64,000 nucleotides of DNA from Eledone cirrhosa. Its lineage: Eukaryota. Of this stretch, positions 1,886-62,321 are shown one piece after another. Both the position numbers and the translations under genes were made by a program. The DNA is taken from assembly GCA_964016885.1 (NCBI GenBank), contig OZ024749.1, forward strand, positions 45,632,001-45,696,000, given 5' to 3'. The notes beneath the pieces were generated by a model, which ran no database searches, was not told the DNA's origin, and was given only the letters and a program-made list of their open reading frames with translations. The first letter of the stretch is position 1. The number at the start of each line of letters is the position of its first letter.

Positions 1886-2482
1886 TCGATCAAATCTTCT
1901 ATATATATGTGTGAGGTATTTTCGCCTTCCTCTTATCGCTTGAGTTGTTACAAAGTTAGAAATCATTTTTCAAATTTACAATGAGGAATCTATCGTTTGT
2001 CTTGTCCTCAGGTTTTACATACTCCCATGGATTCTGCAGTGATGGAGGTTATTCCAGTTTCAGAGTCGCTAAATGTTTGAAGAAATACCCTTCACCAGTC
2101 GTTCCCAGTGGTTTCCCCTGCCTATCACTGGTAATAGTTTTAAGCGACGTTACTTGCAGCAGTGTGAAAGTAAATGCTTTGCTCAATAATCCACTGTATC
2201 ACCCTCATTCTGAACCATTACTATGGCCATAGAATCGTAAATATTACACATTTATATCATAATTGCTATTAATTTCAAAGTTTCTATAAGGTTTTTATAA
2301 TATTTTAGTTCGTATTAAATTAATCATAATTTTTTATTTCATCATGATTATAGGAAATATTTCAATATTCCCCTTAATACATGTTATCACACGTTTCACG
2401 TTCAGCGTAATACTTGCAAAACGGAGCATGAAAATAACAAAATCAAACATTTATAATTAACAAGAAAAAAGGGGAAAATATA

Positions 2483-2577
<95 letters not shown>

Positions 2578-2587
2578 CGTGTGTTTG

Positions 2588-2652
<65 letters not shown>

Positions 2653-3224
2653 CTTTATATATATATATATATATATATATATTCATATATACATATATAA
2701 ATATAAATATATATACATATACACGCATATATATATATACATACATACATGAAAACACACACACACACATACATACACACGCTCACATATATATCTATAT
2801 ACATATGTGTGTGTGTGTGTGTGTATATATGTGTGTGTATACCTAACTTTTTTTTAAATACTTATATTTATTAATTTTTTTCTACTTTTACTTTCTATTT
2901 AAATTTTGTTGTTATGTACTTGATTTTCATTTGTGAGATCAAAAGGCAAGTGAACCAAGCGTCAAATGTGTAGAAACTTTCAAATTTGCCAAACAATCCT
3001 GGTCTCTTTGAAAGGGGTACTAAATAGCATGACCACAATGCCTTGTTAATTAACAAACCAACCGGTCTCAGATATTGTCAGTGTATTGAAGTCATGACAA
3101 AAGGATCTAATTCCGTTTTTTAATTTTATTTATTCATGATCAATTGACTTTTTGTTTTTATTTTTGGAATTGAATTACCTATACGCTACCACTTTTTTTG
3201 CATCCATATGGATGTATGTTCTTG

Positions 3225-3346
<122 letters not shown>

Positions 3347-3395
3347 CATATATATATATATATATGTGTATGTATATATATATACATATATGTAT

Positions 3396-3470
<75 letters not shown>

Positions 3471-3671
3471 AATATGAATATTTATATATACATATATATA
3501 TATACATATATATATATTATATTTATATATATATATATAAATATATATATATGTATATATGTATATATATATATACATATATATATACATATATATACAC
3601 ACACATATATATATACATATATATATACATATTAATATATATGTACATACATATATATATATTTATATATA

Positions 3672-3702
<31 letters not shown>

Positions 3703-3758
3703 ATGTATATATATGTACACAATATACATATGTATATATATACTCAATATACATATGT

Positions 3759-3872
<114 letters not shown>

Positions 3873-4023
3873 GTATGCATGTATATAAATATGTGTGAGT
3901 GTGTATGGCACAGTTGTGTAGGGGTGATATTTATCTACTTATTAACATAGGTATGCACAGTCATATATAGATGTTTAATTATCCATACACATAATCACAC
4001 ATACATACATACATATACATATA

Positions 4024-4118
<95 letters not shown>

Positions 4119-4504
4119 TTAGGTATATATATGTATATATATATATAAATATATCTGTGTGTCTGACTATGTTTGTGTGTGAATGTGAATTTTGTCATTG
4201 TGTAAGAGAGTAAGATATGTCATTTCCCTGTATAGATTATTTTTTCTTTCCTTTTTTAGCATTTTCAATTAAGTTTTTTTTCTTTTTTACTTAATGAAAC
4301 ACAAAACATTAATTTAATTCACTCAAGAATATTATCTTAAGTAAAAAGTAAAAAGTAAATTTGAGGCAGCCATTTTTTCTCATACAACCTCCACTTGTCT
4401 TAAATTAAACAACAATAACGTTTTCTATTTAAATGCTTCCTCCTCGCTAATGAGCCTGATGTCAAAAGCAAATAAGTAAAATACATACAATTTCATATAC
4501 ATAC

Positions 4505-4724
<220 letters not shown>

Positions 4725-5578
4725 ATATATACGTACAATCATACATATGTGTGTGTGTATGTATACATACATGTGTGTGTATGTGTACATTTTAGTATGA
4801 TTTCGTGTTACGTACTAAAACAATTTAATATAATGATTGATGCAATATGTGCTTGGTTTCAAAAAAAGAAAAAGAAACAAGTCAGAATATAGCTAGAGAA
4901 TATAATAATTTGACATGAAGAACAATTTCTGAACATATTGCTTATATTTAACATACTATTGGCATTTACATTTGAGTAAGCACCTTTTTTCTGACTTTGT
5001 TCTAGTTAGTCGAATTTTTCACTATCATCTTTTTCTATCGCTCTAACATTAATTTTAACGTGATATATTTAGAAATCTAAACTTTACTTATACGTAATTG
5101 CTTCATATAGAATGTTCGCCTTATTAAATATAGATTCTTCTGTTTGTCACACACTTTTATTGTATAATTGCATGTAATTGCATATATATGTTTAGCCATT
5201 TTCTTTAGCCAGCTTGTTAAGTAAATATGATTTGCAATGGATATATGACAAGAGGGCTTTCAAATATATATAGATAAGATTCCTTTCTAGATATTTTAAA
5301 GGAATTTCATTCGGATCAGAGAGTAGACCGTATCTGCTGGTCTTGTAAATCAGGATTTCATGCTTGTATATATAATTGTAACAGACCGACAATTATATTT
5401 AATTGAAATACTAAGCATATATTACAATAGCATAATATATGATATTCATGGCACTGATTGTGGAGTGTATCAGTGTGAGTAACTGCATATATGTCTGTGC
5501 ATCTTACATACTAATGAGTTCACGTGAATTTACTTGAGCTTAGTCTACAGAGAGATCGATTAATATTTTTCTAACATT

Positions 5579-5670
5579 GCATAATACCAGCAATTCTGGC
5601 GGAAGGAGAAAGTATATTTGCCCCAATAATCATATAGTACTTTTGTTAAATCGACACTGGAGATGAACAT
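5579..5670 (-). mobile_element. old, diverged relative of SINE family A (3' part)
   Basis: Loose match by eye to the reverse complement of the family A 3' half (CCAGCAATT...GTACTT...ATCGAC...GATGAA). Confidence 0.4.
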
Positions 5671-6188
5671 TCAATATTTACTCCAATGCCTGGAAAGTAC
5701 AGATAGTATTAATAACTGGGAATATTTAGACACTCAATAAACGGTTAAAATAGGAAATATATTCCGTGATTGTAATGCAGGATAATCAGAAATTCTTTCT
5801 GGTGGACATCAACATCATACTCGGACATTCACTCCATGAATGGGCGAAACATACCGAGATTGTTCCCGAAATGGAGCAATTACAACGCAACAAATTGTAC
5901 ATTCATCCAAAGGTTTGTAACACTTTTGGATGAGTCCCCCAAGTTTTGCTAGCTGGAAATTTAGGTTCAAGCAGCAATAATTCTTCGTAATAAACGTTTG
6001 TAGTAACGCAAGGATTAGGACATATTGTGAAGTTAAACATAGTAAATTAGACTGATTAGTGTCCAGAATTTCGCATGACATATTTTATTAATTTTTGATT
6101 TTCTTTGTAATGTGGGATGTGACAGAAGTTTAAATGTTATATGGCCTGTCAACACTACACACTTTCACAAACGTATGTAAATATACAT

Positions 6189-6282
<94 letters not shown>

Positions 6283-6413
6283 TATATATATATAGATGTA
6301 TATATATATGTATATAGATATGTATATATATATATAACGAAGGAAATGTGGTAAGGAACCAGGTGGACCATAACACACCAAAGTACTCAATACTTAGGCT
6401 AGTAGAGTGGGTA

Positions 6414-6551
6414 ATAGAAACGAGTAGGACCTCGACGGCTGAGCTCAAGCCGTTTCGACGGCTAATTCTGGACTAAAATTTTAGTCCAAAATTTTAGTCC
6501 AGAATTAGCCGTCGAAACAGCTTGAGCTCAGCCGTCGGGGTCCTACTCGTT

Positions 6552-6556
<5 letters not shown>
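6414..6556. repeat. fold-back palindrome (arms ~69 bp) made of two hammerhead 3' halves
   Basis: 6414-6482 is the near-perfect reverse complement of 6488-6556. Each arm reads outward GTC-GAAA-CRGCTTGAGCTCAGCCG-TC-GRGGTCC. A single-arm homologue lies at 62927-62988. Confidence 0.95.
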
Positions 6557-6650
<94 letters not shown>

Positions 6651-6695
6651 GTATATATATATATATCTGTATATATATATGTATATACATACTTG

Positions 6696-6730
<35 letters not shown>

Positions 6731-7206
6731 TTATATGAACGTATGCGAGCGTCAGTGTGTGTATGTGTGTTTGTGAGAAGAGCATTGTAAGATCACATTG
6801 ATTATAGTGTATTTGTACTATGAAATCAAATGTTCAGAACGGAAGTATTTTTGAAAAGATAACCCAGCTTTTGTTATGCATTATTGCCTTGATGAAATAT
6901 GTATAGTCGTCACAATGAAAGATCATTAGAGATTACAAAGTTTAGTGTTTATGGAGCTGTTCTGTCGAGTAGTTCACGACCATTAGTTGTGTATCAAATA
7001 CATATATTTCTGACGGAAATACGATTTAGAAAACGTTGTTGATTAGAAGCAGCTATATAAGATATATATTTGTAAATGTATATGTTTCCGGGTTAGTGTG
7101 TATGTGGTTTTGTTGATATGGATGTATGTATGTATGTATACATGTATATAGATATATATGTGTGTGTGCCTGTAAGTTAATGTGTATGTGTAGCCGTATG
7201 TATCTG

Positions 7207-16834: not shown

Positions 16835-17016
16835 TACTCTTTTTAACTGGACATCTCCGACGGAATTACTTCATTTATATATATATATATATGTGTGTGT
16901 GTGGGGGGGGGGTGTATGTGTGTGTGTGAGTAAAATAGAAACATAAATAACAACACAATCGGTACAGTATATGGAAGGGATATATAAGATTAACGCTTGG
17001 TATAGTAGTAAGAAGG

Positions 17017-17052
17017 TCTTAACGTTTCGGACGCTAGTCTTTCATCAGAAGA
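17017..17052 (-). ncRNA. degenerate minimal hammerhead ribozyme (GAAACGTT type)
   Basis: Minus strand reads TCTT CTGATGA A AGAC-tagc-GTCC GAAA CG TT^AAGA. Stem III is a loopless palindrome, the first stem II pair is mismatched (A-C) and stem I is only 4 bp. Confidence 0.55.
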
Positions 17053-52287: not shown

Positions 52288-53375
52288 GTATATATTTGTG
52301 AGTGTATGTATGTCTAACAAAACAAACCTTATATCACTGAAATAGTAATTGATGACCAAAGCTGTACCGATTCTCTTCGACTAGTTTCGTAAACTTATAA
52401 TTCTCTAATGTGTAAGGCAAAAGGACGGCATTTGAATTGTAAATTGTACATTTTTACCTAATCCATTTAAATGTATTTCTTATTTAAACCAGTCTGATGT
52501 ATAGGAAAATGTTCAATTTTTGAATTTCCTAACAATGGTTAGGTTTGGCTAACCACCTCTTCTATGTAAGGTCACGTGTTTCATAGAGTTGAATTGAAAA
52601 AGTGATCTTATTGCTTTGATGAGATCCGCGAAGATTAAAGATGTCTGGGTCGGCTTTCTACTCACCACGTCGTTGTTACATCACTGACTAGGGAGAGTTT
52701 ACATGATATTAAAAATAATGGCACCCTTTGTTCCATCTCCCATATTAGCTTATCTCTGTTGATCGGCGGAGGCCAATTTATCGCAACTAACCATCATATA
52801 TGGTGGCCCTTTCGCTATCCAATGCCCACAATTCATTCTCTAGTTCAACGCCTATGACGAGTAATGCATATTTATTTTCAAAAATGATATGTGAAGCATA
52901 GGGTTTTTCATTTTTTCCGTAAGAAATATAGTAACAACATGTTAAGCATAGGTTTGTACGAACGGGCCAAATATTGGCATATATAACAATAATAAAAACA
53001 ACAAACAGTGTGAAGAGCATCAACAAGGATAGAAAGAAACAAACAGCCGTTATGTTGACAGTTAAATCTGACAGGTATTATTGATGTTAAATTTGGTTCT
53101 ACTAAGAACAGTTCTATTGAAAACACATATAATCTTATAATCCATTCCTGCATGATGAGACATGTCCATTGTTTCGTTGTGGTCATTTAAGAAATATTTA
53201 TGAATATACGACTAACAATCTCCGTAGAGGAGAAAGAAATACCTCGTTCAATTCCTCGCCATGAAGCTCAGACAGATTTTTCTCATTCACAATATATTGA
53301 TTTTAATATACATATATATATATATATGTTATGACGAAACATAAGTCAATTGCATGGACCCCTAATCCTTTATTT

Positions 53376-53431
53376 ACTGCTATATATATTTCGATGATAG
53401 CCATTGAATGGCTATGACCTCATCAGGCAGT
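53376..53431 (-). ncRNA. minimal type I hammerhead ribozyme (best-formed copy)
   Basis: Minus strand reads ACTGC CTGATGA GGTCATAGCCAT-tca-ATGGCTATCATC GAAA TATATA TA^GCAGT. Canonical G10.1-C11.1 pair, stem II 11/12 paired, perfect 5-bp stem I, palindromic stem III. Confidence 0.88.
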
Positions 53432-53490
53432 TAGAAAGTTCTTAGATATGCCAGCTCTGTGTTTATAGTGTTGATTGTATCAGAGCCTTG

Positions 53491-53529
<39 letters not shown>

Positions 53530-53783
53530 CACGCACATATATATATATGTATGTAACTAAGACATGCTTTAGAATTTAGAATAAACATAAAATGTATTGA
53601 TTTAATAAATATAACAATGAATAATACTACGGAAATAGTTTTTCAAATAGTAGCGCGATACACTCACTAAAATACACACACGCCAACACATACACGCACA
53701 TCTAAACATACACACAGATACACACACACACACAAACACATATGTGTGTGTGTGAGTGTTTGGGTAAACGTGAATGTGTCAGT

Positions 53784-53968
53784 AATAATTGTTTCTACTT
53801 TTGGCACAAGGCCAGCATTATCCCAGTGTATTACTGGTACTTTATTGTATCGACCCCGAAAGGAAGAAAGGCAAAGTTAACCTCGGCGGGATTTGAACTC
53901 AGACAATAAAAGGGCCGCAACTCTTTGCTGCAAAGCATGGCGTCCGACCCTCTACCGATACTGCCAAT
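53784..53968 (-). mobile_element. SINE family A, near full length
   Basis: Reverse complement of the consensus. Confidence 0.94.
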
Positions 53969-56208: not shown

Positions 56209-57520
56209 CAATACGTATATACTCATAATGAATAACAGCACAGGTAAATATCATGCTCCAAATACCTCATGTCTAAATAATAAAAACCTGAAATACATAA
56301 TAACCAAGACATACATATATTATAATTTTAAAAATCTCTACGCAGTACAATAACGTAATAAATTTAAAACCAAAATAGACCTATTAATATTTAGATAAAA
56401 TTTGAAATTCCATCATAAACTTAGTATAGGAATCACTACTGAGAATCAATGATTAAATTCAAATTAATTGTAAATTAATCAAAATCCACCAAACTAACGC
56501 ATGGACCTAAAAAATATGGTGTTAAATCCGTACAAAAACGACGCCACTTCTCTTGCTCCGAAAATCTTCTTACACTTTTCCAGAGACATGTATATACATA
56601 TCGTGCCATTTTTAGCGCACTGTGGTAATTTTGGTACATTCAGGAGTCTTGGAAGCGCAACCTTATAAAATACAATAAACACTGTATGAATATATATGTG
56701 AATGTCTGAATGCCTGACTATTTAGTTAATTCACACACACACATATACATACATACACATACACACACATATACATACATACACACACACTACACGTACC
56801 CCCCCCCCCCACACGCACACGTATACGCAATGCAATGCACACGCACAGACTCGCGTACAGTTTCATACTATCACACACTCACTAAAACAGTTGCACGAAC
56901 GCTAATATGCCCCTGCATATAAACGCATTAGTTAAATACTCGCTCTCGCAGACATGTAAACACACACTTAGTTTCATACACACACACACCAATGTACCCG
57001 ATCATACAACTACTTATCTATTAATACACTCATACATATGCAGACATAAACACGCACACACGTAACTACGTTTGCTTCCAGACAGAGATACCATTATACA
57101 TATAGCAAGACCGTTACATGGACACACAATCACAACCAAACTCCCATTAAATATTATCGAATGGATCAACAGACCATATCGACATTCGTTAGTGTCTGAA
57201 TCAGAGCATAAAGAGAACACCCATATAGTACAAGTAAGAGATACATGATGAACAAGTCCACAGAGAAAATGGTGTTGACGTTTACAGCCTGATGAAAGGA
57301 CGTAGACGAAAGGTATACATGTACAGTATTTCACACCTTATCTATTATGATATCTGAGTTGATGTGGAGAATATCGGGGTAAAAGACTGTCTGGAGTTTG
57401 TCAACTTTATAGTGACTGCCTATAACAGATCTACTTGATTAAAGTAAAATTGTCTCCCGTTGATATGCTTGAGATACTTATACTTGTTTGTATATTGGAG
57501 GTAGCATGTGTCATAATAAT

Positions 57521-62101: not shown

Positions 62102-62321
62102 ATGAAAGGGTGAAGGCAGCGATTCTTTGCTTAAACTTTAATCTGTTATTTTCATAAAGAAATATATATATATATACATATCAATGATATTAATACATGG
62201 AAACTATCTTTATAAACTATCTACATATTTATTTTATTATATATATTTCAAGGGTACCAACATTTTTGTACGCCCTCATCAGATAAAATACAAAAATTGT
62301 TTTATAAATATTGATATATCC
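62099..62321 (-). mobile_element. hammerhead-bearing PLE pLTR-like unit, same family as 9.6-10.4 kb
   Basis: Same motif order as 9814-10358 in the opposite orientation. Further fragments at ~62565-62680 and 63001-63030. Confidence 0.75.
62230..62290 (-). ncRNA. minimal type I hammerhead ribozyme
   Basis: Minus strand reads TATTTTAT CTGATGA GGGCGTAC-aaaaatgttg-GTACCCTT GAAA TATATA TA^ATAAAATA. 8-bp stem I, stem II 7/8 paired (two G-U), palindromic stem III. Confidence 0.82.

Follow-up and report, generated by a model that had tools for sequence, protein, structure and literature searches.

The hammerhead ribozyme motif described here is, with a probability that we put at about 0.87, the pseudo-LTR (pLTR) hammerhead of a high-copy Penelope-like element (PLE) with Hydra features, carried by a 168-nt, 5'-truncated copy that lies between (TA)n repeats. 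The window, meaning the whole 64-kb stretch of DNA analysed, contains the following features of relevance.

53376..53431, minus strand: type I hammerhead ribozyme motif, from sequence; predicted cut between 53381 and 53380
53420..53426, minus strand: core strand C3-A9 (CUGAUGA), from sequence; in the monomer, predicted to pair with the 3' side of stem II
53393..53419, minus strand: stem II with loop II and closing pair G10.1-C11.1; probability 0.98 for the inner stem and 0.39 for the closing pair
53382..53389, minus strand: 8-nt all-AU palindrome, A15.1 to U16.1 (stem III, predicted by folding to form only between two copies); palindrome shared by a sister family
53331..53498, minus strand: 5'-truncated copy (168 nt) of a Hydra-type PLE, 3' end of the pLTR; 96% identity to the pLTRs of copy L061
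53446..53498, minus strand: leader, beginning at the shared 5' start (72 nt before C3), from start-site mapping; predicted hairpin, pair probabilities 0.58-0.79
53495..53552, no strand: (TA)n insertion target at the 5' junction, from Tandem Repeats Finder and sequence
53306..53329, no strand: (TA)n insertion target at the 3' junction, from sequence
62230-62290, minus strand: hammerhead of a second Hydra-like PLE family, with the same core and AU palindrome; 834 genome candidates

The hammerhead motif and its repeat family

Positions within the motif are given in hammerhead core numbering (C3, G10.1, A17 and so on). Read on the minus strand from 53431 to 53376, the motif has the type I order and carries 12 of 12 conserved core letters, namely C3 U4 G5 A6 N7 G8 A9, G12 A13 A14 A15.1, U16.1 and H17. 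The open-ended stem I is a perfect 5-bp helix (ACUGC/GCAGU) of 53431-53427, the 5' strand, with 53380-53376; stem II has 12 positions, 11 of them paired (one as G-U), with one C-C mismatch and a 3-nt loop. GAAA occupies 53392-53389, U16.1 lies at 53382 and A17 at 53381. The preliminary description of this DNA had claimed the complete invariant core in type I topology, both stems, the G10.1-C11.1 closing pair and a cut between 53381 and 53380, and the sequence bears out each of these, the cut position agreeing with A17. It had also given stem III as a self-complementary UAUAUA; the stem is indeed palindromic, but the palindrome consists of four AU units and is 8 nt long, not 6. Judged from the letters themselves, the hammerhead is confirmed as real and lies where it had been placed, with its activity standing as a prediction.

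Positions 53331-53498 on the minus strand match the 3'-terminal 168 nt of each L061 pLTR at 96% identity, and the link of a minimal type I hammerhead with palindromic stem III to a PLE, proposed beforehand, is thereby upheld. The window copy differs from the column majority at 6 positions, all in the flanks and none in the hammerhead, and the first base of the hairpin predicted for its leader is the shared start. A 161-nt query against the 3.0-Gb genome gave 467 candidates, of which the 40 scored had 96-100% identity. Genome-wide, there are 2,108 exact matches to the 38-nt core and 3,608 to an 18-nt word close to the 3' end (reversed controls, 0), and we estimate the family at roughly 5,000-6,000 copies (about 5,850). 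The earlier characterisation of the ribozyme as hidden in apparent junk DNA is therefore overstated: at least 2,108 identical cores are present in the genome, and hammerheads of this clade have already been tabulated in print. The family is homogeneous, with about 2% divergence, and its copies have variable 5' ends and stop at one common 3' position, beyond which (TA)n begins; TA repeats mark this point in 28 of 30 anchor-chosen copies. Six insertions extend 81-83 nt further into the body, as a PLE tail, to a single end site, again in (TA)n. Repeat finders run on the window were swamped by microsatellites. Adjoining the copy, at 53783-53968, is an interspersed repeat of ~185 nt that matches 13 of 29 other flanking loci at 80-92%, in unrelated positions; it may be SINE-like.

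The parent element and its clade

L061 consists of a pLTR at 1589-2069, a broken (frameshifted) ORF at 2192-4823 and a second pLTR at 5638-6118, with a hammerhead in both pLTRs 4,048 bp apart, which makes a unit of 4,048 bp. Among 20 further loci chosen by RT DNA, the pLTR-ORF-pLTR arrangement was found in four and an inverted truncated partner in two. The copies thus have the architecture of PLEs, with partial tandems, inverted 5'-truncated partners and an optional 3' tail. The loci concerned are listed here.

L061, L078, L081, L092 and L094: pLTR-ORF-pLTR partial tandems
L006, L083, L091, L096 and L115: inverted 5'-truncated partners

Among the 21 loci, none was seen with an intact full-length ORF. 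The protein used for analysis, P0001, is a natural 704-residue frame in L086 whose first ~27 residues are out of frame. It contains YRDD, a CxCX5C motif (C-N-C-R-D-P-S-L-C, also present in its homologs) and a GIY-YIG-like C-terminus, and has five homologs at 38-46% identity, one of them named from Argonauta hians, which makes a cephalopod host probable. Its structure model has a mean pLDDT of 57.6 with a long disordered linker. In Foldseek the model matched RTs, including group II intron RTs and telomerases/TERT (best E 4.7e-7, range 5e-7 to 1e-4), which, together with YRDD, supports an assignment of the modelled ORF product as an RT. Searches of Pfam and of PDB sequences with the ORF returned no supporting match. 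Residues 584-640 combine a GIY-YIG motif pattern with a modelled beta-beta-alpha fold and resemble the Hydra alignment in the published sections available to us, and this putative endonuclease domain searched alone had neither a profile nor a fold match. Also in L086, at 5498-7000, a 501-residue open frame of another retroelement, holding a DKG motif, stands beside the Hydra copy.

According to the sections of Craig et al. 2021 (PMC8557442) drawn on here, the Hydra clade is marked by DKT, CxCX5C, the lack of CCHH, insertion into (TA)n and hammerheads. In the present family DKG is changed to DKT, with ADKT in 7 of 21 copies (the remaining copies gave no match, and many of them are truncated or broken in that region); visual inspection shows no pair of cysteines between the two GIY-YIG-like strands, so that the CCHH motif inside the putative endonuclease is absent; and 28 of 30 copies are inserted into (TA)n. 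At ~4 kb the element is longer than the clade's usual length of under 3 kb, which the same sections of PMC8557442 present as a general tendency and not as a strict criterion. By these motif and architecture features the element would belong to the Hydra clade. Four sequencing runs of unspecified kind, compared with L061 as contigs only, all contain the family. In one of them depth at the pLTR end far exceeds that at the ORF, depth being a measure neither of copy number nor of expression.

The likeness extends to the ribozyme. File S1 of Craig et al. 2021 (PMC8557442), in the portion used, includes an octopus family, Hydra-1_Obim, and according to File S2 the hammerheads of the Hydra clade have a palindromic stem III and lie ~100-200 nt from the 3' end. 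Those of Hydra-1_Obim, Penelope-1_SK and Hydra-1_Amil are, as here, of type I and ~100 nt from the 3' end; the entries used also share the palindromic stem III and a long stem II closed by G-C, and the elements share DKT, CxCX5C and (TA)n insertion, the C-terminal endonuclease being here a putative, GIY-YIG-like one. Several features set the present family apart in the same material: the supplement text contains neither a 17-nt word of the hammerhead nor CNCRDP from the linker; stem III consists of A and U throughout and the cut triplet is AUA, whereas the Hydra rows seen there all begin stem III with AC; and the ~4 kb unit has a long low-complexity linker and a tail of 81-83 nt, against 30-40 in the Hydra clade. 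Since its hammerhead and protein differ from those in the supplement text of Craig et al., the family is, as far as these sequences indicate, a new one within a known clade.

The sister family offers a second view of the same design. Its hammerhead (motif 62230-62282) has an AU-rich 8-bp stem I and a G-U closing pair in stem II, and the sister ORF in L204 is 57% identical to P0001. Core and palindrome are kept, while stems I and II have a different sequence and still pair, which points to selection on structure in active lineages. At L192 (C2:20313179-20316208) the 3' cleavage-side fragment of the window family runs through (TA)n into the 3' end of a sister-family copy, apparently by insertion of one family into the TA tract of the other. 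L205 contains, on the plus strand around 1775, a third hammerhead variant that shares this architecture and is more diverged.

Chance, host use and a separate short unit

In AT-rich repetitive DNA a motif of this kind could be a chance match, a reading favoured by the microsatellite-like nature of stem III itself and by Rfam. The hammerhead model recommended as a check in the preliminary description found nothing at E<=10 on 53200-53490, and in the whole window only microsatellite-driven miRNA matches were seen among the 150 of 339 matches listed. The other check proposed there, the frequency of matches in composition-matched shuffled sequence, came out in favour of the motif: the strict hammerhead descriptor has a single match in the window, 53376..53431, and none in 300 shuffles made in 1-kb blocks with dinucleotides kept. 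A loose pattern gives 18 overlapping matches at 6 sites in the window against 2.1 expected. The fixed position of the motif ~100 nt from the 3' end, like that in published Hydra families, and the retention of the core in the sister family although its stems differ also speak against chance, and we regard that reading as refuted by the shuffles, the 2,108 exact cores genome-wide and the different stems of the sister family; its remaining likelihood is negligible. Two further CUGAUGA...GAAA cores with a short stem II, at 17009-17048 (minus) and 57289-57323 (plus), failed the strict descriptor; they could represent minimal hammerheads that belong to other PLE families.

Given that the motif is real, the window copy might be a working ribozyme that the host has retained, for instance to cleave one of its own transcripts. 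Its hammerhead is unmutated while all 6 changes fall in the flanks, and in a sample of 45 copies the core seemed protected, with a five-fold deficit of changes (2/534 against 84/4,659 sites). This signal of selection on the core fails genome-wide, where, with the same two pins and span for both sets, the 12 core letters are kept in 2,248 of 2,695 copies and 12 composition-matched control letters in 2,196 of 2,695, per-site change being 1.5% and 1.7%, respectively (p=0.063). The core decays like control sites and the window copy shows no sign of selection; since core retention is similar to that of the control, copies of this age normally have an intact core. Furthermore, no host coding frame is evident among the unspliced frames of the window. 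A 13-nt word for trans-cleavage of (UA)n host RNAs has the motif itself as its sole window match. Host use is very improbable. Somewhat less so, though still unlikely, is that the ~170-nt unit forms a non-autonomous element of its own, retrozyme- or SINE-like, amplified from short masters by the PLE protein. About half of the copies are uniform: of 47 unique insertions chosen irrespective of their 5' end, 23 are short (-62 to -76 from C3), 18 longer and 6 shorter. Read-through RNA from a short copy carries the upstream (UA)n and could regenerate the same 5' end, and the part of a preprint available to us reports retrozymes as pLTR-derived (bioRxiv 10.64898/2026.07.22.740005). However, no variant is fixed in the short copies, the excess of shared variants within the short class is 0.076 (permutation p=0.15), and short and long copies have similar divergence (3.0 against 3.2 variants in 102 columns), a comparison of limited power with ~100 columns and 23 against 18 copies. 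A second hammerhead on the same strand within 1.5 kb was found at 0 of 60 loci (47 unique insertions); head-to-tail tandem units, the mark of retrozymes, are thus absent at these loci within that distance, which argues against a tandem retrozyme. Head-to-head inverted pairs of short pLTR ends occur at L006, L096, L126 and L175, and one arm often bears the 81-83 nt tail; because the hammerheads of such a pair are on opposite strands, they cannot dimerise in one RNA.

The window copy is thus likely a dead 5'-truncated PLE copy and not a separate non-autonomous element. The preliminary description had inferred a relic or active copy of a non-autonomous ribozyme-bearing retroelement. Its relic is borne out by the 168-nt truncated remnant. 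'Non-autonomous' is not supported, because the unit is the 3' end of the pLTR of an element with coding sequence for an RT and a putative endonuclease, short and long copies agree in variants and age, and tandem retrozyme arrays were not found at the 60 loci. In the sections of PMC7229834 compared, non-LTR retrozymes share with this family a type I hammerhead, a unit of ~170 nt and a relation to PLE pLTRs; they form head-to-tail tandem arrays that give rise to circular RNAs, whereas the copies here are solo or in inverted pairs, and the unit here does not span from cut site to cut site as theirs does.

Predicted cleavage, 5' ends and implications

A lone copy is predicted to misfold, its core sequestered by stem II. 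Among the monomer folds, the inactive one has a nearest-neighbour energy of -14.7 kcal/mol, the one with stems I and II alone -13.6 and the active one, with its 2-bp stem III, -10.9; these energies omit tertiary contacts of the core, so that inactivity of the monomer is a prediction only. In the favoured inactive fold the core strand pairs with the 3' side of stem II, in competition with the closing pair G10.1-C11.1 (probability 0.51 against 0.39). Stem III in the monomer would be 2 bp with a 4-nt loop, at a pair probability of 0.014; between two copies it would be a weak 8-bp intermolecular duplex of -3.2 kcal/mol, and the dimer MFE retains the inactive core pairing too. A 2017 paper reportedly described dimer cleavage of small PLE hammerheads. 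No partner hammerhead of the same family occurs in the 64-kb window, and the models suggest that the window copy is likely inert, with cleavage only as a dimer or with the help of a protein.

Both routes have precedents. In the passages of PMC4209133 consulted, minimal PLE hammerheads show no monomer cleavage and weak dimer cleavage. These metazoan min-HHR resemble the present motif in the 5-bp stem I, long stem II, G10.1-C11.1 and palindromic stem III, and in occurring mostly as solo copies from truncated PLEs with predicted dimer cleavage; the same passages give 7-8 pairs for stem II, against 11 here, and unlike theirs the present motif needs no unpaired base between A9 and G10.1 and its family is homogeneous. 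The hammerhead of PAc, a Poseidon element of Anolis, is described in the relevant passages of PMC11167929 as cleaving only with the element's protein and as dispensable for insertion in vitro. PAc, as presented there, shares with our family two RT start sites flanking a tail, an AT-rich target and an uncleaved RNA as inserted template; it belongs to another PLE clade, and its hammerhead overlaps the ORF start, whereas here it lies ~225 nt upstream of it. By analogy, the ribozyme would act in the parent RNA with two pLTRs, as a dimer or assisted by protein: the two hammerheads, 4 kb apart, would pair their AU palindromes into stem III and cut after A17. PLE biology further suggests that the element's endonuclease would nick a (TA)n tract and that RT would start at an internal site ~50 nt downstream of the cut site, copying uncleaved RNA through the ribozyme up to 72 nt upstream of the core.

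That last point reflects where the copies begin. The window copy belongs to the class that starts ~72 nt upstream of the core, which holds 23 of the 47 insertions. In the sister family 18 of 30 copies begin at -69 to -82, with unrelated sequence at the junction, as judged by pairwise alignment of the best matches to a query that reached only -48; both families leave units of ~170 nt. The cut site has the best TA microhomology and yet few starts: genome-wide, (TA)n abuts the 3' cleavage product in 42 cases, and among the 12 of these examined, 6 lack a core and 6 are expansions of stem III. As inserted cDNA almost never starts at the cut site, the template for insertion is not produced by cleavage. 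Microsatellite-like expansions of the AU palindrome are present in L186, L187, L189, L191, L196 and L078, and judging by their letters these copies would have a longer stem III.

Strong-stop DNA offers a tentative model for the pile-up. The ~170-nt copies could be strong-stop-like cDNAs, produced when reverse transcription from the internal site of the 5' pLTR runs off the 5' end of the mRNA, ~72 nt upstream of the hammerhead; we hold this possible but somewhat less probable than not. A promoter within the pLTR and an internal RT start, both known from PLE biology, would fit run-off at a transcript 5' end. Against a simple start-site model, none of the four RT-chosen full-length copies has a 5' pLTR starting at -72; against run-off, a hairpin predicted for the window-copy family has its base at this same position. 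The initiator-like word found at -72 is a weak indication, with 8 such words in the last 476 nt. Microhomology alone is insufficient to explain the start, as longer TA-like words at -266 and +37 and an identical CATATG at -226 have no such peak, but it may contribute. A 5'-end pile-up is not described in the PAc passages drawn on (PMC11167929), and no report of one was found in the accessible parts of the open literature on PLE pLTRs, preprint supplements apart. If the model is true, half of the insertions are complete copies of the mRNA leader, which would map the promoter and show an uncleaved template in vivo, and strong-stop units could be the seed of retrozymes.

The ribozyme itself is ordinary in kind, as hammerheads of PLE pLTRs, including those of Hydra-clade elements of an octopus, have already been published. 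In the sections cited, Craig et al. (PMC8557442) pose the role of the hammerhead in endonuclease-bearing PLEs as an open question. With thousands of young copies, the family is a natural data set for that role, and the pile-up of 5' ends at a fixed distance in two families makes the model of transcription start and strong-stop synthesis directly testable.
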